From Fimicolochytrium jonesii (Eukaryota), in NCBI RefSeq assembly GCF_025526975.1, contig NW_026515678.1:496001-560000 (forward strand): a stretch of 64,000 bases of DNA, read 5' to 3'. The notes under the pieces were generated by a model that did no database searches, was not told the origin of the DNA, and saw only the letters and a list, made by a program, of their open reading frames with translations. Within the stretch, counting starts at the first letter, position 1; every line of letters begins with the position of its first letter. Both the position numbers and the translations under genes were made by a program. Shown one piece after another: positions 1 to 55,893 of this stretch.

Positions 1-265
1 GTGTGGAGAGATGAATGGGGGAAGCGAAGGTGGTTGGATGGTGAGTACCAGGATCAACCCTCGACCATCAAACATTGAACAACAGCCATCAACACATCAA
101 CAAACGATACCCTGTGCTTGCGACGAGGATGTTTCGTTGTGTTGAGCAGAAGCGTAGCTCGCTCCGCTCGCGCTCGCCCGCGTCAAGCATCCCTTCTCCT
201 CGCTGCGCTCGGCGCAGTCCGCCTTCGCTCCAGGTCGCGGCTCCCTTGCGCACCGTTCTTCTCAC
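1..265 (-). other. Long first intron (at least 265 nt, acceptor just outside window) with GA-hairpin motifs and TTGATG tract
   Basis: GTGAG donor at 265; sense-strand CCGAGCGCAGCGAGG (198-212) and GCGAGCGGAGCGAGC (157-171); TTGATG repeats (plus 54-103); branch site and polypyrimidine tract. Confidence 0.6.
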
Positions 266-500
266 CTTCATCGCCCAACGGATTGTAAGCTTGTTTCCGC
301 CCACCACCCGATCTCCCACCCGCGGCTTCATCCCCACCGTCTCCGCCCCCACCCATACTCAGCGGGTTATTGGTGCTTCCATGGGTAGTATGCAACAAGA
401 ATTGCGGAGTCTGCGATGTCCTGCTGCTGCTGTCAGCAGCGGTAGGCGGCGCTTGGTTCGGCTGTGCAGAAGCGTTGCTGCTGCTGCTGGTGGCGTCCAT
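266..500 (-). CDS. Probable first exon of an unidentified gene continuing off the left end of the window
   Basis: ATG at 500 opens a low-complexity S/G-rich ORF (MDATSSSSNAS...AYNPLGDE). A GTGAG donor follows at 265, with a TACTCAC branch-like site (plus 41-47) and a pyrimidine tract running to position 1. Product not recognisable. Confidence 0.5.
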
Positions 501-1154
501 CAGTGCTCTCTGCCCTGTTTATATTGTGGTGGTTTGGCGATATATTGACAATCCAGGATGTATTGGGCGAGTGGTAGAGTTTCCGTGTTGCGCCCTTTAG
601 GGGGGCTTTTCGCACGCGACCGGCGAACCTTTGGCCCCGCAATTGCTCCTGGGTGTTGGGTACTGGTATCACGCTCCTGATGTGCGCATCCCACGGGATC
701 CCTCTCAGACAGCTGTGCAAGATGGGTGAGATCGCTTGACGGCGACGGCCTGACGACCGCTAGCTAGTATTGGGTGGGGTTAGCTATGTCTTGTCTGACA
801 GCGGAGGTCCCCACGATGTCTGTGCGCCCGCTTGGCGAAAGTGGCTCGTTCGTTGCGATCGGAGCGTTACTAACACCCGCTTCTCTTCTTCTCTTAGAGA
901 CGCGCGCCGCTTCAATCCTCGTGCAAGCGGTGAGAAAACAGGGAAACAGCAAAGCGCAGCCGCGTAAACCACTGTGACGAACGCAAAATCAACTTCAACG
1001 CGTCGGTCGGTCGCGCGAAGCGAAGCCTCGTCTTTCGCACATCTGAGAATTCCCGAAATATGGATCCAGCTTGAACACTTGAAACATGCCCAAAACCTCC
1101 TCAAAACCACCACCCCCGACGTTTTCATCCCGCTCAAAGGCTCCGACCAAGCCG

Positions 1155-2306
1155 ATGTCTAAAAGTTCAGCCAGCAGCAACATCACGCCCGAGACCGTCC
1201 TCAAGTGAGTTTACGGAGGACGGTGGGAGGGGGGCGAATACCAACGCCTTTCTTGTCGACTTTTACAGATGTTTGCTCATAACCTTCATCGTTTGTCAAT
1301 AGGTATGACAAACCGTCCGAAGGGTTTCTGTGTCCTATAGATGCGAATAAGTACTTCGAGGTGCGTCGGTTGGGGAGATGTGCGGTCTGGGAGTGGATAT
1401 GGCATGTGATGTCCGGGATGACCAAGGGAAGGTGTACCCTGCCGAAGCATTCATACTCATGAGTCGATTTCGGCCGCGCACATTCAGTTCCTGGAGTTCC
1501 GGATCCGAGATATGGAATCAAACAAGGTGCGGTTTGCAGAAGTTGCGTAGGTTCATATGGGGAACGATCAGAACCATAGATTAAAGAACGCAAAAGCCTA
1601 ACATCTCCTCGCCTTCCCTCTGCTTACAGATCATATTCGAAGTCCTCCGCCCCTCCCACGAAATCGACTGGACCCACCCCACCCCACCCGGGTAAGCCGC
1701 CTTTCCCTCCTCCTTCCCTTGCCTTCCACCCCCTCACCCGCGCCGTCCACAAATATATAGCACCGACGACACCCGCACTATAACCTACACATTCCTCGCC
1801 TCCCTCCTCGCCACCCCCACGATCGGCACAACCCTCGTCTTTGCCGTCTGCCCACAGGGTATCCCCAACTTCCGCATGATCGAGCGGCATTATTTCAAAG
1901 GGAGGCTGATCAAGGGGTTCGATTTCGTGTTTGGGTTTTGTGTGCCGGGAAGTGTCAATACGTGGGAGGCCGTTTATGAGGTGCGTGTCAGGGAGAGAGG
2001 GTGTGGGAATGTTGGGAGGGTGATGCTGATGTCTTCGTCTTTTTTTTTTGGGTTTAGATGCCGGAGATTAGTCAAGAGTTGCGTAAGTACCCCCTTCCCC
2101 ATCACCCATCATCCATCACTCCCCACCATGGACGCCTAGTATCCAACTCCCGATCTCTTTCATCCCACACAGAACAAGAAATGATAGCATCACCAGACGA
2201 AACAACCTCCGATAGTTTTTATTTCATCGACGACCGTCTGGTGATGCATACCAAGGCGCTGTATCGGTATGAGGAGTCGGGGGAGAATGATGCGGGGGAT
2301 TCCTGA
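1155..2306 (+). CDS. UNC119: UNC119 homolog (GMP-PDE delta fold, lipidated ciliary cargo chaperone), about 7 exons
   Basis: Spliced translation gives [92 protein letters not shown], the UNC119 signature motifs. Confidence 0.92.
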
Positions 2307-2644
2307 TCGGTGTATACCATTGGAGGAAGCGGACAGTACATAGGATTTTGGGTTTTCTGTTCTGTACAAAATGACATATCGCAAGTCAGATCATTGACTT
2401 TTTGATGATAACGATGGTTCGATTAAAATGACGAAAATGGAGTAGATACGACAGGAAAGTTGAAATAAATAACCTAGACCCAAATCTCATCCTACGAACT
2501 AAGAAAACAAAAATGCACTTTCTGAAGAACAGTAGCCATACGGCCAATGGTGGGTGAGTAATGATAGTATACAGGTGATACGGGGTGATGATGGGGGAGG
2601 TGATGATGGAAGTGGAGAGGAATGATGGCGAGGAGTGGAAAATC

Positions 2645-5067
2645 TTAACGGTGACTGGCGGACCCGTTCCCACGCTTGCCCGAGAACAAGTGCTTGGGCT
2701 TCTTGACCTGAATCGCGCGGTCGGACTCTCCAGCTTTGGCGAGGAGGTTGGACCGTGTTTGCGAGCGCTTTTTGATGTTTTCTGCCACCGCTTGTTGCTA
2801 TTGGTTGGAAGATACAGGTCGTTAGCTATAGTGTAAAAATGACAAGAATGCGAAGAGATACGAGGACACTTACCGAAGAGTTCCGAAGCCCCATAGCACT
2901 CCGATCGCGAACCTGGCTCGTCGCCTGCCTCTTATTCGGGTTCTGGCTCTGACTCCTAACAATCTCATCGCCCGCCCGTGATTCCGACCGGGCACGCTTA
3001 CGAGTCCTGCTCCGTGCGCGCTCGACAGCCGCATCCGACCCGACGCCCATCCCCGCGAGATGCTGCTCCAGCTGGGCCACGTTCCGCCCGACCTGCTTCT
3101 TGATCGGGATGACGGGGCGGTTCTTGCCTTTGCCGGCACGGTGGGCCTGCACGATGAGGTCCGTCTTGGCGCGCACCTCCTTGGCAGCCTCCTTGAGCGC
3201 GATCGCGTCGTCGTCGAGGATCTCCTCCTCCTCGTTGTAGAACCCTTCGGCAATGAGACGGTCCTCCTCGCGCTCCAGGGCGTCGAGCTTGGCCTCAATG
3301 TCCGGGTCGACAAAGTCCATGACGTTCTTGCCGTCCATGATCTCGGGGATGGTGTCGTATCTCCATTCGGGGTCGTCGAGCTGGTAGGGTTTCTTAAGGT
3401 CGACGTTGAACACACCGGCGCCGCCGTTGTCGCGCTCAATGTCCTTCTCGAGCGTCCGCCTGTTGGGGTCGTTGATGTCGTACTTGACGCGGGTCTTTGC
3501 GGAGTCGGGGATGGCGGCGGGACGGTCGCGGTCGTCACGGGCGATGGGTTGGGAGAGGTGGAGTTTGTTGAGGATGTCGGTGACTTTGCTGCCCTTCATC
3601 TTCATCTCGACACGGGAGGCGAGGAGCTTGTCGCAGGCCATGGTTTTGACGTCCATCACACCCTCGTCGGTGAATGTGCTCATTTGGACCATGGTGACGT
3701 TGTCCAAAGCCGCAATGTCGTCCAATAATGCCTTTTGCTCAGGCGCCAACTGTTCTGGGCGCATCACATCGATCTTGTTCACGACGAGCAGGGTGGGCTT
3801 GTTGGCAAAAAGAGGCTTGATGGCATGAAAAAGCGCCACTTGGTCGGCGACGCTGTAGCCACACTGCTCAGAAAGATCCATGAAGAACATGATGCATGCA
3901 CGTAAATGGGCGAGGGCCGTGATGGACTGCATCTCGATGGTATTTCTCTCCTCGAGAGGGTGGTCGAGAATTCCTGGGGTATCAATCACCTGAAAAAGAA
4001 AGTTTAGCGTCAGAACAGTGATCCATATCGAAGTCGATAATCAAGACAGTCCGTTTCTCGCCTACGCACCTGCCACCTGAGGTACTTGTAATCCATGTGC
4101 CCAACAAACAGACTCTTTGTCGTGAAAGCATAAGGCTGCACCTCAACCTCAGCCCTGGTCAATTTGTTCATGAACGACGACTTTCCAACGTTCGGGTAGC
4201 CGCACACGAGCAGAGTACGGGTGTTTGGGTCGATAGACGGCAACCTAGCCAAATGCTGTCGGACCTGCTCGAGGTACGCCAAACTGTCCTTCTGCCTCTT
4301 CATGATGGTCGCCATACGTCCGAGGGCCGCCTTCTTCAGCTGCTTGCAACGGTAGAGGGAGTCTCCGAATTTCAACAGACGGGCGTAGTCCTTTGCAACA
4401 TTATCTATCAGGTGTTTTGCCGTGTTGATCTGTCCAAGAGCAAGCTTGTAGTGATCCCTGTCATACAACACGTTCATCAAGTCCGCATAAAACGGGTGGA
4501 TTTCCTATAGGAAAGAGGGACAAAACTTGCGTTAGCAGTGTTCCGATAGACAATCAACCATCAACCCATCAACCATCAACCCATCAACCCATCAACCCAT
4601 CAACCCATCAGCAATCAACAATCCAAGATCCACCATCGCGGAAAAGCAGATCGCTAAGAAGTGGTGCTCGCTTCGCTCGCTGAGACTCGCTAAGAGCCGT
4701 TGTTAGGGGAAGCGCTCGCTGTTGCTCGCGGAAGGCGTTCGCTCGGGTCGCCTTCGCTACGCTGCAGACTCCCAGAACAAACCAAGACCCCGCCCTACGC
4801 TACAGGCCCCTAGAGCGAACCAAGGCCTCACTCCGTTCGGCTACTTACATCCAATTTAGGAAACTCCAACAGAATATGATCCAATTTCTCATCGAAACAA
4901 TCCTGAGCGAATTTGACTTTCCGCATATAAAACTGGCGAATCCTAGAAATCTGGTAGTGGGCGTGAACGACTGTGGGAGTCTTCCTTTGAATTTTGGAGA
5001 GAACAATGTCGACAAAGTCTGAGGCGGTCGGTACCACCTGGACCTTCTTGAAGTTGTAGATTGACAT
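2645..5067 (-). CDS. NOG1: Nucleolar GTP-binding protein 1 (60S biogenesis GTPase), multi-exon
   Basis: [22 protein letters not shown]1 [18 protein letters not shown]3 DTPGILD; NKID; C-terminal [11 protein letters not shown]; first intron 4505-4848. Confidence 0.97.
4551..4622. repeat. Tandem (CCATCAA[C])n repeat in NOG1 intron 1 (GTTGATGG on sense strand)
   Basis: About 8-9 imperfect 7-8 bp units read directly from the sequence. Confidence 0.9.
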
Positions 5068-5852
5068 GGCAGTGGTAGTGGGTCAGGGTGGTGGTGCGGG
5101 TGAGGGTGGAGGGTCCGGTCCTTAGAGTTGTCGGAATGGGGGAACAAAGGGCGGAATGAAGTAGCGTTCTTAGCGGAAACGCTGGTTGGTCTGCAAAGGC
5201 CCGGTTGTGAAAAGCGACCCTGATTGCTTCTAGTCTCTTCTCACACACTCCCTTTCTGTCCGTCTTCAGTTGACAAGAACGAAGTTTATCTAACGGCGTA
5301 GTGGACTGTTCGTGTAGGAATGGCAAGGCAGCCAATAAGTTCCTTGAGCCTGCTACGAAAAGAAAAACGAGCGCTGACACACTCTGCAGCAAGCCGAGAG
5401 GGAGACTTGCCCTTGCAAATCCTGTTCTGCTAGTCAGTCGCACGGCGTCACACACGCGGATCCCTGCGAGAGCGAGAGTCACGTGGATGAAGAGATCGGG
5501 CAGTTCGCTTATGTCATTGCGAGTGGCGCTGAGAAGGCGGTGCATGTGGCTTGCGCCCTGTCCTCCTCGCCTGTTGGGAATGACCGCATGGGACGCCAAA
5601 AGGCAAGGTTTTTGGCAACAGGTGGGAAGGCAAGGCATTTCGCAAAGCAGCATACAATAAGTGCTGATTCTCATTACGCTGACCCCCATACTCAGTATCT
5701 GCTAGCCCACACTCTCCCTCCCAGAGAAACACCTCGGGTCCCACATAGTAGATCGACAACGGTCGACGCATATAAGCTTACCCAGAACTTTTTCACCTTG
5801 CTGAGTTGGACACCTCAACCCTATCGAATTCAACGAACACCATATTGACAAA

Positions 5853-7536
5853 ATGGCCGACGCGGACGTAGATAAGAATGTGGAGCTATGGAAGATGAAG
5901 AGGCTCATCAAGAGTCTAGAGGCCGCGAGAGGGAACGGGACTTCCATGATCTCCCTTGTCATTCCGGTGAGTTTCGAGCGGAGCCAGGAGAAGCGCGAGC
6001 GACAGGGAACCCCATGGCGGGTTCCGAGCGGTAGCGAGCCTAGCGCGAGCGAAGCGAGCGATGGTAGCCCGAGCGATAGCGAGCCCGACCTTTGCAAACG
6101 CCTTCGCGAGCTACAGCGAGCCTCAGATCTTCACGAACGAAAGGAGCGATCTGGTTCTGTTCAAAAGAACCTCGCTGCGCGAGTTTAAACCATCTCGTTG
6201 ACGGTTGTTGACGGTTGATGATTGATGGTCGGAATACTAGGGCTAAAATTCATGTCCTCGATTCGCAGCCAAAGGATCAGATTTCACGGGTAGCAAAAAT
6301 GTTGGCAGATGAATACGGAACAGCCTCCAACATCAAATCACGGGTCAACCGATTGTCCGTGCTCTCCGCCATCACCTCCACCCAACAGCGTCTGAAGTTG
6401 TACCCACGAGTCCCCAATAACGGCCTGGTAGTCTACTGCGGAACAGTGGTGACCGACGAAGGAAAGGAAAAAAAGGTCAACTTCGATTTCGAGCCCTTCA
6501 AGCCCATCAACACGTCTCTGTACATGTGTGACAACAAGTTCCACACGGAAGCCCTCTCCGAATTGCTCGAATCCGACCAAAAGTTCGGGTTTGTCGTGAT
6601 GGACGGTCACGGAAGTCTGTTTGGAACCCTGGCCGGCAACACCCGCGAGATCCTGCACAAGGTCTCTGTCGACCTACCGAAAAAGCACGGCCGCGGTGGT
6701 CAATCCGCGCTCCGTTTCGCGCGTCTGCGTGAGGAGAAACGCCACAACTACGTGCGTAAAGTTGCCGAACTCGCCGTCCAATTCTTCATCACCGCCGACA
6801 AGGTCAACGTCGCGGGCATTGTCCTTGCCGGGTCCGCCGACTTCAAGACCACGCTCGCCGAATCCGACCTCTGGGACCAGCGTCTCGCCGCAAAAGTCAT
6901 CAAAGTCGTTGACGTCTCCTACGGCGGCGAGAACGGGTTCAACCAAGCCATTGAGCTCTGCGGCGAAGTCCTGCAGAACGTAAAGTTCATCCAGGAGAAG
7001 AAGCTCATCCAGCAGTACTTTGACGAGATTTCGCAGGATACCGGGAAATACTGCTTCGGCGTGGACGATACCCTCAAGGCACTGGATTTGGGAGCGGTCG
7101 AGACGCTGATTGTGTGGGAGGATCTGGATATTACGCGATATGTGCTGAAGAACCCGGCGACGGGCGAGGAGATTGTGAAGCATTTGAATAAGGAGGCGGA
7201 GAAGAATTCGGATAACTTCCGCGATCCGGAGAACAATGTGGATTTGGAGACGGTTGAAAAGATGTCGTTACTGGAATGGGTAGGTGTCATGAATGTCGAC
7301 AGGTATGTTACATCCCTATCCATCTGCTCACCGCCCCACCTCTCTTCATCCAGTTCACATCGGGCCAGCCATCCAAATACAAAGATTTCGGCGCCAACCT
7401 CGAGTATGTGACTAACAGGTCACAAGAAGGATCGCAGTTCGTGAAAGGGTTTGGAGGGATCGGGGGCCTGCTCCGGTACAAGGTCGATTTCCAGCAGATG
7501 ATGTACGATTCGGATGATGAGTACCTTAGCGATTGA
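5853..7536 (+). CDS. SUP45: Eukaryotic peptide chain release factor 1, 3 exons
   Basis: [40 protein letters not shown] motifs; intron 1 at 5967-6268, intron 2 about 7280-7354. Confidence 0.98.
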
Positions 7537-8451: not shown

Positions 8452-10308
8452 ATGTCCGCACCCATCCCCTCGCCCCTCACCATCCCTTCCTTCCGCGCCC
8501 ACCGCCCCTCCGAAGTCCGCCATCCCGCCCCCATCACCGCAACCTCCTCCCCGCGCTCCATCCTCGTCTTCTCTGGCGGCTCCGCAATGAACACCTTCGT
8601 CAGCATCCTGCAGGGGTTTACGGATGACACTGCCTACATCATGCCTGTGAGCGATGATGGGGGCAGTACGAGTGAGATTATCAAAGTTTTGGGTGGGCCG
8701 GGGATCGGGGATTTGAGGAGTAGGGTTGTGAGGTTGGCGGAGACGAGGGGGTTGGAGGGGAGAGCTGTGCATGATCTTTTGAGTTATCGGTTGCCGTTTG
8801 ATGAGGTTGGTGGAGGAGCAACACCAAAGCAGAATGGGCATGGAAACGGAACATTAGCGAGCCCGAAGAAGAAGTTATCGGCGAAAGAGGAGTGGTTAGA
8901 GATGCTTGAAGGAAGACATCACCTGTGGGACGGCATCTCACACCCGTATCGCGAGACGATCCGGACCTTCCTCGCCCATTTCCAGCACGAACTCTTCCGC
9001 TCGGCCACACGCAAACCGCTGTTCAATTTCCAGGGCGGATCCATCGGCAATTTCTTCCTCACGGGCTCGCGGTTGTTCTTTGACAACCTCGACGCGGCGG
9101 TGTTTCAGTTCATGCGGATCATGCGGGTGCCGCCGCGTACCGAGGTCGTGCCGGTGCTGACGACGACAAGGGGCGCGGTGGTGATTGCGGCCGCGCAGAG
9201 GGATGGGGGGGTTATTTATGGGCAGTGTGAGATCTCGCATCCGGGGCAGGTTATGCCGGAGGGGGCGAGGACACGGTCGGGGTCGTTGAGTGCACGGGGA
9301 GGTATAGGTACAACGGGGCGGAATGGTCCGTCGGCGGCGGCTGCATCACCGACAGGGATAACGACAGGGATAACAACAACACAATCGTCACTACTGTCAA
9401 CAGAACCCACCCTCATCCCCTTCACCTCCGTCACGCGCAGCCCCTCCCAAAACCTCATCTACTCCAAAACAACCTCCCAATCCCTCTCTTCCCCCCTCCG
9501 CCGCATCTACTACGTCAACCGCGAGCGCCAGGAAATCTTCCCGGACATCAACCCCGTCGCCGCCGCACAGCTCTCCCGCAAACGCACAATCATCTACGGC
9601 TGCGGATCTCTGTATACATCCATCCTGCCGTGCCTCGTGGTTCCGGAGGTCGGACGCATGCTTGCGGATAACACGAAAAGTGGGGGGATTGCAAGTCCGT
9701 ACCCGATCAGGGATGGTACACCTCCCGCGGCCCGTGTGAAACTACTCCTGTTGAACGGATCTCACGATCGCGAGACGGAGGGGTACACCGCCCTCGATTT
9801 CGTGTACGCCATCACCGACGCGCTCAATTACTCATGCATGGTCGAGCAGAAACGCGGGACGGCACATCGACCCTCCCTCCCGGACATCGACGGAAACTCG
9901 TCCCTCCCGTTCACCCGCGACCGGGACGGCAAGCCCGTCGGTCTCGACTGGTGGGTCTCCGCCACCAGTCCCACCAGTAACGGCCACACGAACTCAGAAG
10001 ACGACGACGAGGGCCTAACAATGCGCACCTCCCGCCTCTCCCTTACAAATTCACAACACAAAGCGGAAATCCTGACAGCAGACTCGGGCCGCACCTACCT
10101 CGGCTCGCCACACCCGCCCGCGGCCTACATCACGCACCTGCTGTACCCGGAGGACGGGGAGGTGAGGATTGATGTGGAGAGAGTGGAGGCATTGGGGATT
10201 CGGTGTGTTCGGGTGCGCAAGGCGGCGCGGAGTGTTGGGCTTGGGCAAGGGAGGGGGTTGTATGGAGTTGAGGAGTTGGGGGAGGTTTTGGATTGTTTGG
10301 TTATCTAA
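8452..10308 (+). CDS. UPF0052 / YvcK-CofD-like family protein (yeast YNL011C-like), intronless
   Basis: ILVFSGGSA, PVSDDGGSTSEI, GGPGIGDLRSR, SIGNFFLTG, GQCEISHP, IIYGCGSLYTSILPCL, LLLNGSHDRET motifs typical of the family. Confidence 0.88.
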   Translation: MSAPIPSPLTIPSFRAHRPSEVRHPAPITATSSPRSILVFSGGSAMNTFVSILQGFTDDTAYIMPVSDDGGSTSEIIKVLGGPGIGDLRSRVVRLAETRGLEGRAVHDLLSYRLPFDEVGGGATPKQNGHGNGTLASPKKKLSAKEEWLEMLEGRHHLWDGISHPYRETIRTFLAHFQHELFRSATRKPLFNFQGGSIGNFFLTGSRLFFDNLDAAVFQFMRIMRVPPRTEVVPVLTTTRGAVVIAAAQRDGGVIYGQCEISHPGQVMPEGARTRSGSLSARGGIGTTGRNGPSAAAASPTGITTGITTTQSSLLSTEPTLIPFTSVTRSPSQNLIYSKTTSQSLSSPLRRIYYVNRERQEIFPDINPVAAAQLSRKRTIIYGCGSLYTSILPCLVVPEVGRMLADNTKSGGIASPYPIRDGTPPAARVKLLLLNGSHDRETEGYTALDFVYAITDALNYSCMVEQKRGTAHRPSLPDIDGNSSLPFTRDRDGKPVGLDWWVSATSPTSNGHTNSEDDDEGLTMRTSRLSLTNSQHKAEILTADSGRTYLGSPHPPAAYITHLLYPEDGEVRIDVERVEALGIRCVRVRKAARSVGLGQGRGLYGVEELGEVLDCLVI

Positions 10309-10842
10309 AGGGTATTTTTTTGGTGTTTGATGAAGGTCGCGAGGCTGGTGAGTTGATGTTGAAGAGGTCGGCGGCAGGACCTGCCGACGTCTGAGGTCTT
10401 TGTGTGTGCTGCAATCTATATCTTTTTTTGGAATTGTGCGTTTGTTCCTTGGTGGACGGAACCTGATGTGTACTTATGTAAATTGATTGATTGAGTTGAC
10501 TCGATGGTTGCCTGGCATGAACCTCTTCTCCATGGACAGAACCTGTTCATTCATGCTTTTTTGCGAAAGCTACGAGTTGGTTCTGGACTTAAAAACATCG
10601 GTGGAGGCTCGGAGGGCAAGGCCTTTTGACGGGGCTTCCCGCGCGTCAGAAGTTTTGACAGCGAGTGGAAACAATACCAGCCCTCCAAGCACCTTCTGCA
10701 CGCAGTAAGTTTCCTTTATGACACACTAAATGTGGGCCATCGGTCTGTCAGGTATATTCACAGCGGCGTAGATGTCTCGGGCGTCCTTTGTACAACATTC
10801 TCCACCGCAACCGAAAGCCCACAAGCACCTCCCAGAAACAAA

Positions 10843-11310
10843 ATGTCCAATAAAGCGCGCATAAGCCCCGTCGAACCCGCCCCGACCCCCTTCCACCGCC
10901 TCACCCAAGCCCTCAACCCCACCGATCGCCCCTGGGCCTGCTCAGCCGACGGGTTCCGCCTCATCCTCCCACACGGCCTTGACCACGCGCGTCGCATAAC
11001 CGAACGTGCCGGCAAAAAAATCGCAGCGGGGTGGGATGGCGTTGTGGTCGTGCCATGGAGTCCCGCGGTGGATATCAGCAGAGTGGCTGCGGCCGCGAAG
11101 ACGGTGGTTGTTGCGGTACCTGCGTTTCTGTGGACGCCGGCGTTTACGAAGTTTGTGGATGCCCAGGAAAATGTTGGGATCTATCGGTTGAAGAGGACGA
11201 GCGTGAGGGGGCATGTACGGACGGAGTTGAGCGAGGTTCAAAAGGGGTTTCTTACCGTTAAGGCCAGCAAACTGTTGACGCGCGGGGGGAATGTACATTA
11301 TATAGAATAG
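10843..11310 (+). CDS. Hypothetical protein, about 155 aa, intronless
   Basis: ATG in AAAATG context; open frame with the same C-rich then G-rich codon pattern as real genes here; no family recognised. Confidence 0.45.
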   Translation: MSNKARISPVEPAPTPFHRLTQALNPTDRPWACSADGFRLILPHGLDHARRITERAGKKIAAGWDGVVVVPWSPAVDISRVAAAAKTVVVAVPAFLWTPAFTKFVDAQENVGIYRLKRTSVRGHVRTELSEVQKGFLTVKASKLLTRGGNVHYIE

Positions 11311-11563
11311 GCGACCGTCGTCATGTGTCCCGGCACTGACACCGGGTGCACAAAGGCGTCCTGCGGCGACCGTACCGAAGGGTTGGGGGAGTGTCAGGGC
11401 GGCGCACTTATATTGGCGATATTCCATTCCCCGAAAGAAGAACGATGGACAGACGGCTTCCTATAGTCCGAGCCAAGGTAAGTAAAATGTCGCCAGCAGC
11501 CCCATCCTTTTCACGTGAGTGCAGAGATGTTCCCCTGTCCAGAAGATGTATGCAAAGGAGTCC

Positions 11564-11822
11564 CGCCTGTACAGGCACGTTCCCTCGGACAAGTGCTAGG
11601 ACGTAAGCGTAAGAGCCTTGCCAGGGTTGCCTGAGTATACAGTCAAACAGTCCCGAGGCCATTGCTGGCCTCCGCCACACATCACCCATGCCAAGTGGGA
11701 GAGACTCGCGCCTATACAGGCACGTTCCCTCGGACAAGTGCCAGGACGTAAGCCAGCCTTGCCAGGGTTGTCCCAGTATACAGTGGGACAGTCCCGAGCC
11801 ATTGCTGACTCCCACACACTCA
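11564..11822. repeat. Imperfect tandem duplication, period about 145 bp (two copies of about 115-120 bp)
   Basis: CGCCT(G/A)TACAGGCACGTTCCCTCGGACAAGTGC(T/C)AGGACGTAAGC...AGCCTTGCCAGGGTTG...AGTATACAGT...ACAGTCCCGAG...CCATTGCTG present at 11564 and again at 11709. Confidence 0.92.
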
Positions 11823-12223
11823 GCAATCACTAGTCAGGTGGGTGAATCAAAGCGCCAGTACTTATCTTTTGGCTTGTCTTCCGCGATGAGATGATTGGCG
11901 CACGCGTTGTTTGGTGGCAAGGACGAGCCGCAGAGTTTTGTTGCGAGTTGCCACTTTGAAGCTAAAGCTTTCCGAGAGGTCCCTTGCCGTGTGAAGGAGA
12001 TGATCAAAATCGCTAAAGCACTCTCCTTCCTGAATGGTGGGGGGTTGTTGAGGTTGCGCTCGTCGGGTTGCTGGTTGCGCGCGATGGGATGCCACATACA
12101 GAACCGACAGTTGGTTCGTGTCCGGACAGCTCGGACATCGCGTTGGTGTCGCGGGCGGCGCGTTTGAACGGCGAACGCCCAACGGCCCCCCAACCGCAAA
12201 CTTTCGCCAGCATCGCACACAGA

Positions 12224-13411
12224 ATGGATCGCCCAGAGTCAGCCTTGAGCGCTGCTGACTTTCTCTCCGAAAATCCAGGCGGCACGAATCACGAATTCCT
12301 GCAGTATCTGGCGGATCTCCGAGCTAAGGAGGTCAAGTACTCGCAAAGGTTGACAGCGGCGGATACCCGCAAGCTCGAACATCATGCCCGCAGACTCAAA
12401 CGTTTGCGTCGACTCGAAAGCACGGTGAGTATCCTTGCTCTTGCAAGCTACCAAGCAGGCTTTCGACTCATTAGACTTTCTAGAGCGAAGCAGATTTCGC
12501 TGCGGCAAAGGCGGAGACTGCAGACCTGCAAACGAAGGCAGCGGATGCCCATCAATCCCTGTCAACACACGTGGCGAGCCTGTCGGCTCCACACAAGACG
12601 CTGATGAATCACGTGTTTGTTGCGATGAATCCCTTGCGGACTGAGTGAACCAATGATGTTTACTATCTCATGCCCTTCGCAATTCTGCCGTTCGTCAGCC
12701 TACGCTACGGGGATGGCGCTTCGGCGGCGGATCGCGACGACAACCGGTTGCGGACGTCAAAGGGGATCGGCAAAAAGGTCGACTACGACTACTTTGTGGG
12801 ATCGCGCGAGCTCGGCGCGGGGGAGAACTCGGGAGATTCCCCCACCAAAGAAAAGGTCAACGGGGATCTCATCGCCACTATCAAGGTGCGAACTCGTCAC
12901 TTTAGAAAGAATCCCCAATACTCACACTTCTTTCACGCTATAGCTGGCGATCAGCCAGATCCGCAAAGTCAAGAAAGAGGTGCTCGCGGATCTCCCTTTG
13001 TCGGATCGCTGCAAAGATGCGACCAACATGGCAGCGATGATCGCCCCTCCTTTTTTTGTTGTGGAACGCCATATGATCCACTTCTTTGTTCTTTGTGAGA
13101 TCGGCAGCGAGATCTTCCCGGTCAAAAAATGCGGAGCGATCCCCTTTGGCTCGGCGCACCAGGATCTCCTGCCCTTTGCGGGGCTTGCCCGGCAATTTTT
13201 GTTGTTCCAGGTGAGGTCCACAGTTCTGTCTGTCTCTCAACCTGCTCTGCTGATCCCATATGTTCATTAGCAATTGGCGATCCAGGCGAGCCCCGCCGCG
13301 GACTCGGCCAAGCTGCGTACGCAGGAGGATCTCGCGCTCCGCTTGCCCGTGCCGGATCACACTTTCGTCCCTGCCTATGCCGTTAGTCGACACGCGGGCG
13401 AGCTGGACTAG
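12224..13411 (+). pseudogene. Four-exon gene for a PD-(D/E)xK (restriction-endonuclease-like, Crinkler C-terminal type) protein with one in-frame TGA
   Basis: Introns 12425-12483, 12886-12943 and 13211-13270 all join in frame. Product has TE*TND..RYGDGASAADR..GKKVDY..ELGAGENSG..DLIATIKLA. Single stop at 12646-12648. Family assignment is by motif resemblance only. Confidence 0.6.
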
Positions 13412-13979
13412 GTTTCTGACGTCTGGGAGGCGCTCAAGTCCATTTCCACGATGCCATGCCGGGCGCCGAGGCGTTACTTGATGCCGAGCCTGTATTAGCC
13501 CCAACAACTAGGTCGGAATGGCATGAGGATTTCGAGGAGGCGAGTGGACCGGGTGCCTCAGAAATGCCACGAGATTGCTGTGAAAAGTGTCAAGCCGACC
13601 GTGCTTAACTTGGCGGTGTATACAATCCCTTTTGAACGTGCCTCGTCCTCTTATGGGGAGGCGGAGGACCTTTGCCGGTCACTCCCATAAAGAAGGATCT
13701 TCTTCTCACCAAGGCCATGAGGAAAGCGAGCGTCCCAATCCCCGGTCCCACGCCCGGCAAACTGAGGCGAGCGGATCCCCCGCAACACGACTCCCCGACG
13801 TGATCCCCGTTTCCCCGCAACGCGGATTCCCTACAGCATTTGATCCCCCACATTATATGATATTTTTTTTTGATATGATAGGGATTTGTTAAATCCACGG
13901 CCTCCATATTAGATCCACGGCTTTCCGAAAAAAATTAGCGCCACGGCCTACATAATTAGGGACACGGCCTGGCATCGCA

Positions 13980-14984
13980 GTGGAAGCTGAATACGGATCT
14001 GAGGGCACGCAGACAGCCTGTGTCCCGATCCTTTTGGGTCTCCTTTCCGTTCTCGGACAATGCGTATCTCGACCGGGCGAAGATGTGGTGCACCTTTCGA
14101 AACCCGAGCTGAGGCACATGCTGGAGCAAATGTGCGATTCGGATATATGGGCTCACGTGTGCCATACTTACGACGCGGACGCCGACCTGCCCAACGACAA
14201 CCTCGAGGAAACCAACGTGCTCCAGATCTCGGTCCAGTGTGGAAGCCAACCCCCACCCGCTTGCGTCCCCAACGGATTCGCTGCTTCCCTCTCCGATCTT
14301 CAACGAGGATCCTTGCTGGACGCGTATCTTGCTGGCCTGATAGATCTCGATGGGCTCAAGGCGACCCGCGACGTATTTGCATCACGGGTCCGCGGGGGCT
14401 GGGTGCAAATAGCACCGTATCACGGCCTTGATATGCATCCATCGTTCGGTTTGATGAAGCCTCAGAAACCCAAAGCCCACATTGCCGCTTGTCTCGTTAA
14501 GACGCTGGTACCAGGGCTGAAATGCGAAACTGGAGAGACCAAGCCCTCGATTGTCACTTCGAAACTTGGGTCTGGCACAGGGTGCGGACAGCAGCCGGAA
14601 GAGACACATTTGATCATCTCCTCGCTCCTCGGACCCGTGACGAAAGGAGACATGGCAACGGTGTTTGCCCCTGAAAACGATCTCACGGTCTCCGGGACAA
14701 CAATGGACCAAAAGCCGCCCGGTAACTCAGCAAGCAAGGACTTTCTGGTCTCTGCTGTAGTGAACCGGATCGCTGTCAGGCAGTGGATGTGCATCTGCAT
14801 CACGGCGCGGGCGGACTTTCTTGAACGTCTAGCAAAGTGTCTGAACATTGAAGTCGCCGTCTTCGACGAACCGGTCACGGCAAAGCCGTTGATCGCGGCA
14901 CTGCTTCTTCTTCACTTCTCCGCAGCCTTACCGATGCCGGCTCCACTTCGCAACTGCAGCGGTGGCGAGACTACCCACCTTTAG
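13980..14984 (+). CDS. Orphan intronless ORF of 334 codons (start uncertain; possibly relic)
   Basis: 1-kb open frame beginning at GTG; first ATG about 46 codons in; no recognisable motif. Confidence 0.35.
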   Translation: MEAEYGSEGTQTACVPILLGLLSVLGQCVSRPGEDVVHLSKPELRHMLEQMCDSDIWAHVCHTYDADADLPNDNLEETNVLQISVQCGSQPPPACVPNGFAASLSDLQRGSLLDAYLAGLIDLDGLKATRDVFASRVRGGWVQIAPYHGLDMHPSFGLMKPQKPKAHIAACLVKTLVPGLKCETGETKPSIVTSKLGSGTGCGQQPEETHLIISSLLGPVTKGDMATVFAPENDLTVSGTTMDQKPPGNSASKDFLVSAVVNRIAVRQWMCICITARADFLERLAKCLNIEVAVFDEPVTAKPLIAALLLLHFSAALPMPAPLRNCSGGETTHL

Positions 14985-17096
14985 CACGTTACCCATTCGT
15001 AATCACGCCCACGCAAGCGGAGTTGCTTACGTCACGCCTGACCGAGATGTTTGACAGTTGAAAAAAGTGTCAACCAGATCAGTTCAGATCCACAAGTTCA
15101 GATTCTACTGTTTTCAATCAAGAAATCCACGCCACTTAGTCGAAAGTAGAATCCATATCCAAACTCAACCCTAATCTCTCGTACAACGTAGCATCAACGG
15201 TCTATGCAGCGCCCGTAAACCGGCCCGTCATGGAGGATACGGGGTATACTAACGAATATGAGGAGCTCCACGCGCAATCGCATCTCGCAGTCGTGTTCGA
15301 GATATCGGACATACACTGAAAGAGGTCCTTCCACCAAAGACCTCCTGCGTCAGAATCAGTTGAAATCGCATGAGCTCAGCAATATGAAAAGAGCCGAAGA
15401 CACTCACTCGATGGGCTTTTCCGTCTCGACACCAAACGCTTTATTGATATGGAACCCAATGCTATCATTCCGGGGTCATGGACCACCGTCCCGCCATCTG
15501 AAACGTTCACACTGGGCAATGGAGTCGTCCTCCTATCTGGGACGACCTACAGGCGGATAGAGGTGCGATCGGGTTGAGAGTCGTCTGTCCGATTATTGTT
15601 GCCACGACAGGGGGTAAAGAGGGGAAAACGGATGATAACGAGAAAGACTAGGCGCAGCACGGGATCCAGTCCGCTGAAGCAACGTTGTCTAAGCCCTTCG
15701 TGGTCAACGTCCTGCCAACAGATTCTGGAAAGAAGGGCGTGTGCACTACCTAGAAGAAGGGACAACGGGACGGCGTTTTGCGGCTTTCCCCGGGGGTCGG
15801 TTACTCAATTAGTGTGAGTAGACTGAGGAGAAGCTGTTCAAGCATTTTATGGCGGAGAACCGTTCGACCACCGTTCTGGCGGATGCCAACTGGTTGGGGA
15901 AAAGTGAGGAGGTTCTCGAGAGAATCTTTTGCGGATATGAGGAAGAAAGAAGGCATTGCTGTACAAGCTCTTTCGAACAAGGACGGGTTAGAGATGAAAG
16001 AGAGAATCGCCTTCTCCGCGGGAACTTCTCGATGTAGGCTTCCGCATCGAAAAGGTCGCGACCGCCATTCGAAGTACGAAACATGACGATTTGGGACTAA
16101 ATGGGTGTACATATATCAGAAATTGCGTGTGTATGCATCGTACGCTCGAGTTGTGTGGCGGTAGTGACAAAGGAAAGAACTCATTATTATATAACATAAT
16201 AAGGAGGACATTGTCATTTAGCCAACTCTTCAAGTTGCGTGCATCAGTACGTTTCATCGGTACAGATCACTATATGTATGAGCGGTTGGCCGCTACCGCT
16301 ACGGAAACGGTCAACGTCCCTTTGCCAGACAGCTAAAATCGGTCTTTCGCCGTGTGCTCGGTCGTACAGTAGTTGAAAGTTCTGATGACGAAGAGACCTG
16401 CTGTTATCCTCTGGATGCCAGCACATCGCAAAACGTTCAAAAGGTCTCTTCAAAAAATTTTGCTTATATGGAGAAATGGACGTCCAAAAGGTAGGCCGTG
16501 ACATGCTATTCGAGAAAGAGATTAAGAGCGTGGACCGACGGTCATCCAGCTTCATAGCACCGGCCGGACTGCACGTTGCCATGGCTGACACAGGCCGTTT
16601 GGAATTCTACGTAACAGAGGGTTCCGAGAGCTGTTCCGTTCCGTCGCTTGAATTGTTGACTTTGACTGCCGTGGCCCGCAGATGTCTGCCTGATGAAGAA
16701 AGAGCAAGGCTCACGCGTCCAGAACCCGCCCGGCCTTTGATCGACAAAACCGATGGCCCCCCAAATTCTAATCATCTGCCTAAACCAACATAGCCAAACG
16801 TTTTCCATCTTTTAGCTGACGCTTGTTTGCCAATCGAGCGTGCTCAAAACGTACGTACGTGAGGACGTGAAGTTCACATCACAAACATAGGAAATTCCCA
16901 CGCCCACAAAACCCTTGCCATTTCTACCTCAGCACCCGCATACTACCTCAAGCGCCGTATCTATCTCTCATTGTTCTTCCGACATCGGAAACCGCTAGGG
17001 AACGGAACGCTTCTAGTGGCACTCCTACGCGTGGTAAACAAGCAACCGTGCCCGTTAGCTCCACAGAGGAACCAATTATCTGCTCGCGCGCCTAGG

Positions 17097-25036: not shown

Positions 25037-28031
25037 GTACAAGAAATCATGGGAAGGGAGTCTGATTGGTGGTGGAGGACGGAAGTATTCAACAAATCTT
25101 GATCTGTCTGATAGGATCGATTCCCAACGAAAGTAGGGCGAGACGAGGTGAAGGAACTATTGATATACTAGGGGAGATTAGGGCATAGCACGGGAAGTGT
25201 TTTGTAGATCATTTAGATAGCGACCAGTGAAATTCATGCAGTTCATTGGGCGAAAGAGTTTTTGGAATCCAAAAATCATATTAGCAATCTCAAAGCGCAC
25301 AGTATTGCTGACATTCGCGACGGAGAGCGTTCCTATACGAGGGCTGCGGTGGACAGTGACGAGCGACAGGCCAAGCAACCTCTAAGATTGGCAGATAAGC
25401 TGGGAAACGACAAGCTGGTCACCGAGGGAGGAACTACAAGACGCGCGGCAAGGTCTTGGAGAACGAATCGGAATCAATGGACAAGATATTGATGGGCTTC
25501 TTGGCTTCTTGGCTGGTCATGATCGAGGAATGCTCAAGTGCTTGATGGGAAATATCTGGTCGGTGGCTGTGAGAGAGTGCCTCCGCGATCGGATGCCTGT
25601 TTGAAACATATTCACAGCTGGGTCAAGAGATAGCTTCTGCAGCGGTACTTGGGCGTCCGGAGACACGGCTGGATCGTAGTGCACCTGGGCACACCGGGCG
25701 CGCTCTCGTGCTCTCAAGGGGGAAGTCTGCGGGAAGGCTTTTACAACGCCGGGCAAGTACGCCAACCATCTGTACAGCACATCTGGCCCAACTTGACGCT
25801 CACCGGCGAGCCGGGATGTCATCGAGTCTACCGTCTGGGCCGCGCAACTAGCTTATGCGGGCGGAGGGGTACAAGTCATGAGGCCAACCCACTGTGGCCC
25901 CTGCCCTCGTCGGCGCCATGGGCAAGAGACACATTTGGAGACCTGGATGTGATGCCGGTGAATGGAGGGGCAAGTAACGGATTACGAGGTTGCCCATGTC
26001 GGCAGTCTGTTGTAGGCTATCACACATCATAGTGAGCAGCAAACGGCAACGGTGGCGGTGAAGCAAGGGAAATGCCAAGGCCCGAAGGTAGAGGAGCCAC
26101 TGGTAAGAAAGGCGTGCTCCAAGACGAAGCAATTGTTCCGTTGCAGCTCAATTTGTCCATCGATGAAGCAGGCGTTGAAGAAGAAGCGGTGCCGCTGCGA
26201 CGAAATGGAAGACGTTGGGTCTTCACAGAAGTCCAGGACCCGCCCCTACGTTAGGGAGCTCAAGGTGGCGTTTCTCTGTCGGATGGCATACGTCGCCTGC
26301 GATAAGGGAGCGGTCATCCCCGCCCAGGCCAAGGGGTGCTGAAGATGATGGTGAAAGACGACGAGACAGATCTCCGCCTTGCGTTGGCCGACTATGTCAA
26401 CAGCGGTGACAAGGCAGATCCCAGGAAAATGATTGACCGCATCGTGGCCCCCCCGCGGCCCCAGTGGCAGAAGGGTTTAAAGGCGATGGAGGGCGAAATC
26501 TGCCGCGTGACGATGAGGACGGCGGGGTCCTTGACCGGGCCTCCCATGAAGTGCGGTATCGTCGTAGATCAAGAACGCTGCAACGTGACTGTCGGAGATC
26601 TCACTGATGCCGCTCGCCATTTGAAGGTATACCACGGCCCTCCTGGCAGGAACCGGAAAAGGAGAGAACATCCGTGAATGCGGTGTTGATTACTGCCAGC
26701 TCTGCTCGACATGGCTTGTCGGGCGCCATGCATTCAAAGCTACACGTTGGGCTGCACCTCGACAGCGATCTTGCCGGATGGACCCACAACGGCCACTCCT
26801 TTGCATCTGATGCGGTAATATCGGAGCTTTGCCCTCGTTGGGAATTTGACGAGTCCCTGCACGCAGTGGAAAGGACGAAGTCTCACTCGTCGCCTTCATC
26901 TGGTCGCAGCGGTGGTCGGGATCTCATTATATACCAACCGCCTTCCACTTGCAACTAAGCAGTATTCCCGCTGTCAGTCGGAACTGACAGCACAGCTGTC
27001 ATGGGCTCACGTGATTTTCCCCAAGCCACCCACGCCACATTCGTCGTTTCCTCCCGCCTATAAAAAGGGGCCCGTAGCTGCAGCCATTTTTGAAAATCCA
27101 AAAGCATCGAATGCAAGCCACAGTCGTCCCTTCCTTAATAGGGTCGGATTGCCAGGACCCATAGCGGTCCGTCGCATTCAAGACCAAGGTTTACCAAGGG
27201 GCTCTTATAGGAAGTGATCTCGACGCTTTGGCGAATGAGATGATTCGCGCTCCGATGAGTCCCAACATTTCAAAACGATTAGCCATGTGTAGTGTGCTGT
27301 TAGTTTCCGATTCGACTCCAGACGTCTTTGGACGGCGTGATGTGCCCGGGGGCGATCGTGCACATGTGAAGAGATGAGAGGTTCTGCCTCGGGGAGACGG
27401 CCCTTGCCATCAGAGCCGGTATTTGTGGCTGCCTCGCCTACGCTTCAGTTGTCTCAAGTTGTCGCTGCATAGTAACGAAGAGATGCAATGGCCGATGGGA
27501 CCCTCGAGACAGAATCTTACACCACTATTGAGGATAGTATTTTGCGGTGCTTGAGCTTGCGCTGGACATCACAATCCTCAATGAACGCAGGGAAGTTCTG
27601 CACCACCTGCTTCTAGATGGCACACGTACTGTATCCTTAATCAACGGTGATTGCGTTTCTTTCCGTATTGCTGGGAGGTGATGTTTACCTGGGAGCTATC
27701 CGCTATAGGATTGCTGAGGCCAATAGGATCAGTAGTCCTTTCTTTCCCATCTTCATTACTTTATCTGTTACTACAGGGTGCTCCCACGGATTGGGGCAAA
27801 GATCGTATGGCAGCAAAACCTTTCGCTTTCGAGGATGTTGCGCACTTTGATGACATGCCGGCCGGATGGAACTCTAGCTCATGTACATAATCTACTGTAC
27901 GCATCTGACGGCTCTCGATCTGCAAAGCAGTCTTTCATGGGGTATATATGGCCGCAATTCGTTGATCCGTTTCCCAAAATATGTTGTATGGTGAGGGCGA
28001 TGCTAGTAAGCCCCTGATGATACTGGTGGTA

Positions 28032-31000
28032 CTATGGCTGACCCCATCCTCGCAATAAGCTCAGTTTCTCCTCCACCGCCTGCAAGGATGAGAAACGGTC
28101 GTTAGAGCAAGCTCAAACCACCAATCTTACAATTGAACACCATAACCAACCTGCAAAACAACCTTCCGATCTGTCTCCATCTCCAGCGCATCAATCTCAC
28201 CTTCCAAAACATGATACAGCACTTCCAGATTCCGCACATTCATCCCGTTCGTCAACGACAGCAAGTCCGTCCGCAATTTTGCCAGGTCTCCGCCTAGTTG
28301 CGCGACTTCTCGTTGCGGACGGTGGGGAAGGGTCAAGTCTTGTGATTCGGCTATCTCCATGTGGGAGGAGGTGTTGTGCCCGGGAGATCCGGATGTGCTC
28401 GAGTTCTGCGTAATGGCTGGTTCCGTGGTTGATGGAGGGTTTGTGCTCGCTGCGGTGCGTTCTGAATCTGAGGATAGAGAGAGCCGCCGCCGCTTATGTG
28501 CCGATGAAGGTTTGAAGAATGTTCCTACAAAACCAACGTACGTGTGAGATTTCCGTACAGAAAGAGAGCACAACAGATACAATGGCCGTTCCTACTATTG
28601 GATTCTGTGCCATTGGATTGTGTGCCATTCGATACCGTCCCCGCCGCCTCGCTAACTGGTGGCACAACCTCTTTCGCGCCTTCAACCTTCCTCCACAGCG
28701 CCGCTTGTAAGTAATTCAGGCGATACGTGCTAGGGATGCTTTGCACGAATGCATGAGCGTCGTCGCGAAGTTCATGTGCCTGCAAACCCCGAGTTAGCTT
28801 CTTTCTCCCTATGCCCTAGCCCCTCCCCAGTGATGATAATTAGCCGTACCTTGTGTACAATCTCAGATCGGGGATAATTATACTCCGACGCATTCTTCCA
28901 TATCTGCTCAATGTCCTTAAGCCAATCTTCCGGAGTCTCATATTGGTCCGCATCGAGTTTCGTCATCATCTCCCCCATATCCATCGGTTCAGTAACCACC
29001 TCCCTATAGTCCGAGTACCGCGACTCATCCACCGGGTGACAGAAGACGCGATACTTGGTCTTGCCGATATCCTTGTGGAACAATCTCAGCCGTTGTTTTA
29101 AGTCTTGCAGCACGTTCCAACATTTGGCTTCCATATTCTTTTTTTGGATGTTGGTGAGCACGGGGAGGGGTGGGCCTTCGGCTAATGGAAGGATGGCTAG
29201 AGCTGTTGGTGGGATGGCTGTTTGCGCGGAGTCTGGTAGTGTTGCTATGGACTCTAGTAACGGTTCGAAGAAGAACGCGCGCTTTTCCTGGAGGAGATTC
29301 AGCGGATGTTGGAGATTTTGGAGTCAGGAGCTAACGCTTCTCATGAGGCTCTCATACCTCCGTGGGAACACTCATCTCGAATATTGCCCGGAATCCAAAC
29401 AACGCATTGATATCGTCTTCGGTACCATTCATGAATTCCTTAATTTGGTCGCTGATCTCGCTCGTCGACTCCCAGGTCGCAAACACGAGAATGGAATGGC
29501 TTGCGATGCGTAGTTGATCATGCAGAAAGGTGATCGATTCCGCCGACCAGGAATCAAAGTTCTGTAGGACAATGCAAGGGAGTGCTTCGTCTCTTAATGC
29601 ATAAATCGCCGAGGTGATACTCTGACTGTGATGCTAAGAAGTGTGTCAGCCGCCCGTGGCTTCCAACGGGCATTTTGATATCTCACGTACCTCGGAATCC
29701 AGGACATTCTGGATAATTTGCACCCTGAAGCCCCACTCCATCAATTGACCCATTGCCATGGACGAGATTTCCATCTGTCCAATATTAGGCGGCCCAGCAA
29801 CCATGACGCGTGGTTGTATGGTGGAGAATGCAGTACCAGCTGATCGTCGACTGAGAGCCGTATGGATCACCCGCAACCGGCGAAGGACACCATCCCACAT
29901 GTCAGAGACCAGCACTTGAGCACGGGACGATGGTGGCGGGCCGTTTGCATCGCCAATGCTACCGCTTGGCTTCACATCTGCATTACGAAAACTTTTAGTA
30001 CCCAATACCCTGGACATTCGAGGAACGTGCTGACGTACCTCTGAGGGCTTGATCAAAATCGCGTTGTGTGACCTTGACGAGCGCCGGATCAACATGCAGC
30101 TTCTGAGGAGCGGTATATATTTGGGGATATGTCCTTCGCAGAGCTTTGAAGTATGCGTCGTTGCATAAAGACTGCAGGAAAAAGAAGAAACCGGTCAGCT
30201 CAGGGTCCTGGCTTCAAAACGCTTATAGCATATGCAAACCTTCAAGTCCGCGCCACTATATCCATCGGTTGCACTCGCAACCCGTTCCTTCAGACCCTGC
30301 TCGAGCTGGAAATGCTGCGTTCTGATGTCGATGATCTTTTGTCGCGCGCCCCGATTTGGCCGCTTGAACTGCAGACGTCTATCGAACCGGCCAGGACGGA
30401 GTAATGCTGGATCCAAGGTGTCCAATCGATTTGTAGCTCCGATAACGATGACACGGCCTGTGTTTCCAGTAAAACGAGTTGAACACTTCCATCATCGGAT
30501 GCTTTCGATTAAACCCAACTCACCTCTATCTTCAAGGCCGTCCATTAGCGTCAGCAACGATGTGACCACCGAGTTGTGAGGCGTCGCGTTCTCCCCGGAT
30601 GATCGAGCCGGTACCATGCCTGTGCAATCGCAAAGTCAGTGCCATGCTATAAATGCCGTCGACGAAGTACTGCAACTTACCGTCAACCTCGTCAAAGAAG
30701 ATGATAGCTGGCTCATTTGCCTTAGCTTGATCAAACAGCTTCTTCAAGTGCTTCTCTGACTCGCCAAACCACTTCGAGTGGACGTCGGCCGCTTGGCACT
30801 CGAAGAAGGACACTGGGACCTGGAAACTCGAACAGCTCGAAGCGATGGCTCGCGCTAGATGTGCAAGTCAGCATGCTTCTCCCACAAATAATTCACGCCA
30901 GCGCGTAACATACCCATCAGTGTTTTCCCGTTTCCTATAAAGGAGCTTCGGTTAGAACAGGTACGTCTTCCCCTTCTCAACCATATCGTCATATCTACCT

Positions 31001-54279: not shown

Positions 54280-55467
<1,188 letters not shown>

Positions 55468-55893
55468 ATGACTGGTCGCGGAAAGGGTGGAAAGGGTCTC
55501 GGAAAGGGTGGTGCTAAGCGTCACCGCAAGATTCTTCGTGACAACATCCAGGTAAACTACTCCGAAGCCGTTGCAGTCTCTCCCAACCACTCTCCATACC
55601 ACTCTCTAGCTCTGTACTCATCCATCCACCCCTCTCTGTCTCTCTGTCTCTCTCGTACTCCTCAGGGTATCACCAAGCCCGCTATCCGTCGTCTCGCCCG
55701 CCGTGGAGGAGTCAAGCGTATCTCCGGTCTCATCTACGAAGAAACCCGCGGTGTCCTAAAGTCCTTCCTCGAGAACGTCATCCGCGACGCCGTCACCTAC
55801 ACCGAGCACGCAAAGCGCAAGACCGTCACCTCCCTCGATGTCGTCTACGCCCTTAAGCGTCAGGGCCGTACCCTCTACGGTTTCGGTGGATAA
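55468..55893 (+). CDS. HHF1: Histone H4, 2 exons
   Basis: [38 protein letters not shown]...TLYGFGG; intron 55552-55665. Confidence 0.99.

Follow-up and report, generated by a model that had tools for sequence, protein, structure and literature searches.

The stretch analysed here, called the window, is 64,000 nt of contig NW_026515678.1 from the chytrid Fimicolochytrium jonesii (assembly GCF_025526975.1, positions 496,001 to 560,000 of the forward strand), and our subject is a set of small hairpin units with tandem G·A pairs clustered in the first introns of three genes near its left end.

Hairpin clusters in the first introns of DP, NOG1 and eRF1

The window is fungal nuclear DNA, with 89-91% identity of eRF1 exon 2 to Spizellomyces, Gaertneriomyces and Powellomyces. 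Because this exon matches a Fimicolochytrium jonesii protein at 100% and then those genera, the source is a spizellomycetalean chytrid. The leftmost 7.6 kb hold the E2F dimerisation partner gene DP on the minus strand, which continues past the left edge of the window, a UNC119-like gene (Pfam GMP_PDE_delta), NOG1 on the minus strand and eRF1 on the plus strand. Since DP exon 1 (266-500, 78 codons plus 1 nt, minus strand) is a 100% match to the N-terminus of a 551-aa E2F/DP-family protein (P0122), the left gene codes for a transcription factor and is not a translation gene. A preliminary description of the locus had assigned the hairpins to translation-related genes, which is true of only two of the three hosts.

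The introns concerned are the first coding intron of DP (1-265, minus strand, with its acceptor just left of the window), intron 1 of NOG1 (4505-4848, minus strand, 344 nt) and intron 1 of eRF1 (5967-6268, plus strand, 302 nt), the last at a position also used in distant fungi. The bounds proposed for the three genes hold: removal of the NOG1 and eRF1 introns gives continuous proteins, RNA-like contigs of a relative skip a net 344 nt at NOG1 and join the exons across the eRF1 intron, and the annotated protein of the left gene places the DP donor at 265. By a crude, unvalidated gene model, which omits the DP and NOG1 first introns, 52 of 68 introns in the window measure 50-130 nt, with a median of 74.5. 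Each host gene is a member of a divergent pair and the hairpin clusters are promoter-proximal, sitting 120-400 nt 3' of the start codon.

All nine hairpins of the preliminary description were found at their coordinates, on the sense strand of the host gene. The DP intron carries GC-GA-GC-GGA-GC-GA-GC (157-171) and CC-GA-GC-GCA-GC-GA-GG (198-212), both on the minus strand. The NOG1 intron, on the minus strand as well, carries GCC-GA-AC-GGA-GT-GA-GGC (4825-4841), located 7 nt past the donor and the sole unit with a changed inner stem, CGC-GA-GC-AACA-GC-GA-GCG (4713-4730), GC-GA-GC-GAA-GC-GA-GC (4666-4680) and, overlapping the latter, a further unit with a G-T wobble that had been overlooked, GC-GA-GT-CTCA-GC-GA-GC (4675-4690). 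On the plus strand, the eRF1 intron exhibits C-GA-GC-GGTA-GC-GA-G (6025-6038), CGC-GA-GC-GAA-GC-GA-GCG (6044-6060), C-GA-GC-GATA-GC-GA-G (6070-6083), GC-GA-GC-TACA-GC-GA-GC (6106-6121) and a near-copy with one mismatch at 5975-5987, which lies 8 nt past the donor, in the same place as the first NOG1 unit.

Strand, spacing and common layout of the three introns

A strict pattern (C-GA-R, an inner stem of 2 bp, a loop of 3 or 4, then GA-G) gave 12 matches in the window compared to a shuffle mean of 3.1 (maximum 8 in 100 shuffles). Nine of these fall within the three first introns, that is in 911 of the 64,000 nt, all in sense orientation and none antisense, in agreement with the sense-strand-only hairpins claimed previously. 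The DP, NOG1 and eRF1 introns contain 2, 3 and 4 strict matches, respectively, against shuffled maxima of 1, 1 and 2 (2000 shuffles each), the remaining three matches lie inside predicted genes, and no strict unit was detected in the intergenic DNA or in any other intron of the window. The occurrence of hairpin clusters in the three first introns is confirmed as an observation. The strand bias corresponds to three independent events (three of three introns sense), with a chance of 1 in 8, and a looser pattern applied to the whole window was less striking (31 matches vs 22 ± 5).

To avoid selecting for stems, YGAR words in the introns were also listed without requiring pairing. Ten pairs of such words 9 or 10 nt apart were present in the three introns against 3.6 expected (P ~0.001), and their inner stems were Watson-Crick in nine cases and contained a G-T wobble in one. 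On its antisense strand each intron also has one plain GNA mini-hairpin that lacks the tandem GA; those on the template strand include 6171-6183 in the eRF1 intron and 152-158 in the DP intron. Each of the three introns is rich in G over its 5' third, with 40-45% G vs 22-24% C. Neither intron length nor high expression suffices for an array, since the histone H4 intron of the window and the first intron of a Rap1-like gene, 249 nt long, have none and the other introns show no strict match.

We found also that the three introns share one order of elements, missed as to its repeats by the preliminary description: donor, GAGC/AGCGA cluster, TTGA(T/C)GG repeats, branch and acceptor. The repeats are of the TTGATG(G/T) type at 53-103 in the DP intron and form 7.5 tandem copies of the 8-nt GGGTTGAT unit at 4553-4610 in the NOG1 intron (both on the minus strand, 5' of the likely branch point), and TTGA(C/T)GG repeats are located at 6197-6228 on the plus strand, 5' of the 3' end of the eRF1 intron. 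Thirteen of the 59 TTGAYKG words of the window lie in these introns, all of them sense. Sense alignments of intron against intron scored 111-120, compared to a mean of 45-48 (maximum 74-84) for 412 window tiles and to 52-59 for the antisense. A link of the TTGATGG repeats to N6-methyladenine (6mA) at ApT was rejected, ApT reaching 4.2-4.4 per 100 nt in the introns vs 5.6 in the window.

An RNA splicing code would account for strand directly. It supposes that splicing proteins attach to UUGAUGG repeats ahead of the branch point and, close to the donor, to purine-rich GAGC/AGCGA words, and that this binding aids the recognition of introns three to five times longer than the usual 50-130 nt, the hairpin look being a by-product of a repeated quasi-palindromic word. 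The element order identical in all three introns, the high sense alignment scores and the sense-only TTGAYKG words speak for such a code. However, the 249-nt Rap1-like intron possesses neither motif, the invariant G-N-A loops, the 9-10-nt spacing and the paired flips described below are left unexplained, and the structured-RNA version has no energetic support. We consider this splicing code unlikely.

Other features of the window were recorded alongside. At 1008-1030, the divergent promoter of DP and the UNC119-like gene contains a pair of overlapping GCGAAGC cores together with a TCGCGCGAA word, which we take to resemble an E2F site, and DP autoregulation is possible. Ahead of the UNC119-like gene, a putative intron of the 5' untranslated region (726-898, plus strand, bounds set by eye) shows a GTGAG donor, a CTAAC branch and a pyrimidine tract; it has no hairpin array. 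An intronless gene of 618 codons with a CofD/UPF0052-type domain occupies 8452-10308. The stretches 10800-17000 and 25300-28100 are gene-poor and repeat-like and include a tandem duplication of 145 bp (11564-11819) as well as an open frame (13956-14981); they are possibly relics of mobile elements, and strict hairpin units were not found in them. Finally, 54351-55893 holds a divergent histone H3/H4 pair with one intron each; GA/CT microsatellites are present downstream and in the promoter that the two genes share.

Structure of the hairpin unit

The structural unit is already known, as a Hirao mini-hairpin stacked on a CGAG block, and its setting in fungal introns appears new. According to a review, Hirao mini-hairpins, d(GCGNAGC) or d(GCGNNAGC), have cores with melting points of 70-76 °C in DNA and are much weaker in RNA, where a related core already melts at 39 °C, and natural examples act as single-stranded DNA in the phage G4 and ssiA priming sites and in the N4 promoters (PMC13037366). 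In the introns, all six triloops (five units and the near-copy) are G-N-A with N being G, C or A, N being the one free position of the DNA mini-hairpin rule. Cores measured as DNA, with melting temperatures of 71-76 °C, are present in five of the ten units (GCGAAGC twice, GCGGAGC, GCGCAGC and GCGATAGC), two more units, with a GGTA loop and an AC/GT stem, come near the rule and three fail it. The likeness lies in a two-pair GC-GC or CC-GG stem closing a loop of the GNA/GNNA type. In contrast to the Hirao hairpins, the chytrid cores are extended by a tandem G·A block, clustered, and placed in nuclear spliceosomal introns, a word absent from the available text of that review (PMC13037366).

The second relative is the human AUTS2 promoter, where CGAG blocks made of C-G, G·A, A·G and G-C pairs and capped by GNA/GNNA loops have been solved by nuclear magnetic resonance; they lie near the transcription start, adopt alternative registers and have a regulatory role that is proposed but unproven (PMC10085684). 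In the same way, CGAG is paired on CGAG with tandem G·A in nine of the ten chytrid units (the tenth pairs CGAA on TGAG); loops of the GNA/GNNA type and a place near the transcription start are further likenesses. In AUTS2 the element consists of (CGAG)n alone and lies upstream of the start, whereas the chytrid introns contain scattered single-block hairpins together with a second repeat; they hold no contiguous (CGAG)n tracts or 4-nt register shifts, with only four YGAR pairs at a spacing of 4. The DNA-hairpin chemistry attributed to the unit in the preliminary description is borne out by its match to measured mini-hairpins (GCGNAGC, GCGATAGC) and to CGAG blocks with sheared G:A (PMC13037366; PMC10085684).

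Judged from the letters of the loops, a better fit to the DNA rule than to the RNA rule is supported, and this loop rule is the better structural argument compared to covariation or folding energy. The covarying stems claimed beforehand are present but weak: across the ten units, the inner stem showed a compensatory change in a single copy and the outer stem flipped twice, with two breaks and with controls that are not convincingly cleared. Nearest-neighbour RNA or DNA models gave no excess fold stability, with z from -1.1 to +2.9 for whole introns and from -0.4 to +2.1 for clusters, and the pre-mRNA structure offered as one option gains no energetic support (RNA z ~0 to +0.5). Such models are described in the review as unable to explain mini-hairpins (PMC13037366).

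Loops and spacing also bear on duplex-DNA binding sites, in which GCGAGC words 9-10 bp apart, about one helical turn, would serve as an intronic enhancer for a dimeric transcription factor. Most units are indeed direct repeats of one 6-mer, the spacing peaks at 9-10, and every cluster is promoter-proximal in a gene that forms part of a divergent pair. Departures from the 6-mer, however, come as pairing-preserving couples in three units, the spacer is constrained to G-N-A, and the clusters are sense in three of three introns whereas enhancers are usually orientation-free, which leaves duplex binding sites improbable.

Other folds were compared. The AGCGA-quadruplex consensus asks for four AGCGA with 1-20-nt spacers and is found at 4651-4691 in NOG1 and 6033-6082 in eRF1 and nowhere else in the window (PMC5442326). 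The DP intron does not fit it and the solved loops are mostly G-G-paired, unlike the chytrid spacers, which lack G tracts (PMC5442326). Simple hairpins are favoured because the loops are only 3-4 nt. A kink-turn (an L7Ae-family site) was rejected, the units being symmetric 2x2 loops and the scan giving two loose long-range cases in DP only, and so was a small nucleolar RNA or other Rfam family, as the introns matched none of the Rfam models up to E 5 and showed no pair of C and D boxes by eye. A description of such hairpins in fungal or chytrid introns was not found in the literature searched, most subscription journals and supplements lying outside its coverage, in line with the statement of the preliminary description.

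Copying, conservation and possible role

The orthologues of eRF1 were scanned for a GT donor at the same codon boundary, and a metagenome gave three contigs with 76-82% protein identity to the eRF1 of the window; the same pattern in prokaryote genomes gave six matches, taken as chance. In these contigs, which come from distant fungi, the intron measures 298, 25 and 25 nt and is AT-rich. The 25-nt GT-AG introns (contigs L002 and L003) are far below the usual fungal length. The annotated eRF1 differs from contigs L001 and L003 at 7280-7380, where it has a 10-residue stretch after intron 2 and they read FAEKYK, possibly a lineage-specific insertion or a misplaced acceptor. As none of the three introns carries either motif, the hairpin content is not fungus-wide. 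Absence from orthologous introns, which had been named in advance as counting against a selected element, is thus observed, on the scale of distant fungi only, and with covariation weak against its controls the word 'selected' is not upheld. As the position of the eRF1 intron is old, this intron cannot stem from a fresh introner insertion.

Several mobile families were considered. Introners, or introner-like elements, yield similar introns that are always sense-oriented; the chytrid introns resemble them in being similar and sense-only but lack end-to-end homology and terminal repeats, in addition to the old eRF1 position. An introner or other mobile intron family was rejected on end-to-end similarity, which is at background after masking, and on the intron that three distant fungi also have at the eRF1 position. 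Double-hairpin elements, small GC-rich hairpin elements of chytrid mitochondrial introns, are set apart by description only, being mitochondrial. Traits of miniature inverted-repeat transposable elements or Helitron-like elements (defined ends, target duplication, copies dispersed in both orientations) were not seen in the 64 kb of this one window.

Signs of local copying are nevertheless present. The introns have in common flanking stretches of 17-29 nt at 76-94% identity, and a block of ~50 nt at 4714-4764 of NOG1 (minus strand; inverted-repeat arms I1 and I14) is similar to 6071-6121 of the eRF1 intron, with a score of 48 compared to a shuffle mean of 19 and a maximum of 27 in 300. When the two repeat words are masked, the similarity of the introns falls to background (16-17 vs a tile mean of 18). 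The introns thus share vocabulary and order without being end-to-end homologues, and because flanking words are common to them, slippage and local copying are the probable means by which the clusters grew.

The same 15-nt core was found in viral contigs in ~3700 stretches, giant-virus bins included (an estimate from 3/64 parts). Paired outer stems occur in ~370 viral stretches against 61 unpaired. One position beyond the fixed core, a Watson-Crick pair was present in 58 of 149 and in 54 of 113 distinct contexts, compared to 33 and 28 on average after shuffling (maxima 52 and 43 in 2000 shuffles). Both results support stem pairing for the core in viral DNA. Further hairpins near viral cores lie on the same strand in 35 cases and on the opposite strand in 7. 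Such GA-zipped GNA hairpins of phage, giant-virus and plasmid non-coding DNA are like the intronic ones in their identical 15-17-nt cores, one-strand clustering and pairing beyond the core. They differ in their flanks: the TTGATGG repeat was not found in the viral flanks and the 25-nt block shared by NOG1 and eRF1 has 0 matches in viral contigs. One viral contig of 403 kb (L263, L266, L267, L294, L302, L305, L323, L338) contains a dispersed repeat family with a GA/GNA hairpin at the tip of a long stem, the arms being variable yet paired.

These data bear on a neutral origin, by which the introns received local copies, through insertion, gene conversion or slippage, of a hairpin cassette that had taken shape in a virus or a small mobile element. 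The complement, being pyrimidine-rich, would look like a 3' splice region, so that copies would survive in the purine-rich orientation only. All three introns are found within 6.3 kb, they share flanking words and the 50-nt block, the core is common in viral contigs with giant-virus bins, and for this very species a host-like contig with a giant-virus capsid gene is reported (PMC13533422). Such a cassette does not agree with masked introns aligning no better than random tiles, with the lack of terminal repeats or target duplications among the largest repeats, which were those listed, with the lack of a strict copy in the intergenic DNA of the window, with a shared 25-nt block unmatched in viruses or with an old eRF1 intron position. 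We regard this neutral residue as rather unlikely.

Our preferred reading, held tentatively and at less than even confidence, is that the clusters are hairpins of the non-template DNA strand, likely folding during transcription and acting in cis. We observed the units, their strand and spacing, their confinement to these introns, the richness in G of the 5' thirds and, towards the 3' end, the TTGAYGG repeat. The G-N-A triloops, the CGAG blocks, the 9-10-nt spacing and the stem pairing of the viral cores speak for this reading. From there, each mini-hairpin stacked on its tandem G·A block would likely fold where RNA polymerase II leaves the non-template strand unpaired behind it, be it in the transcription bubble, in an R-loop or in supercoiled DNA. 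The folded hairpins would then be promoter-proximal cis elements, read by a structure-binding protein or merely slowing duplex re-annealing, with a possible effect on output or splicing.

Several results weigh against these transcription-dependent hairpins. Two of the ten units have a broken second outer pair, and shuffles equalled the observed covariation in 19-62 of 500 for four of five measures and in 371 of 500 for the fifth. Three of the ten loops violate the mini-hairpin rule (AACA at 4713-4730, TACA at 6106-6121 and CTCA at 4675-4690), GGTA is outside the measured loops and the AC/GT stem is without the second G-C pair. Nearest-neighbour DNA folding of the clusters gave z of 0 to +2. 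Arrays are absent from the other genes of the window (58 kb), among them histones H3/H4 and the Rap1-like gene with its 249-nt first intron, the three host genes are neighbours without a common function, and 0 of 3 distant orthologous eRF1 introns carry the hairpin or the TTGAYGG motif. Raw viral abundance proves nothing either, because an AG/AG control is commoner (~5100 vs ~3700 for GA/GA), probably since it is read as common codons.

A bolder form of the preferred reading, which we judge quite unlikely, is a two-part code of long first introns in spizellomycetalean chytrids, with non-template single-stranded DNA hairpins of the phage-origin type read during transcription and a TTGATGG repeat before the branch point. 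Several natural variants, a small genome and a transformable relative, Spizellomyces punctatus, mean that compensatory mutants can test structure versus sequence directly. For a nuclear role of sheared-G·A DNA hairpins (mini-hairpins, CGAG blocks, AGCGA folds) in eukaryotes, the human cases rest on oligonucleotide structures. If the intronic units are neutral copies, a virus-type hairpin vocabulary would be spreading inside host introns. If the two-part code is true, these introns would be a natural example, open to mutation, in which the non-template DNA strand of a eukaryotic nucleus controls splicing or the output of RNA polymerase II through its fold.

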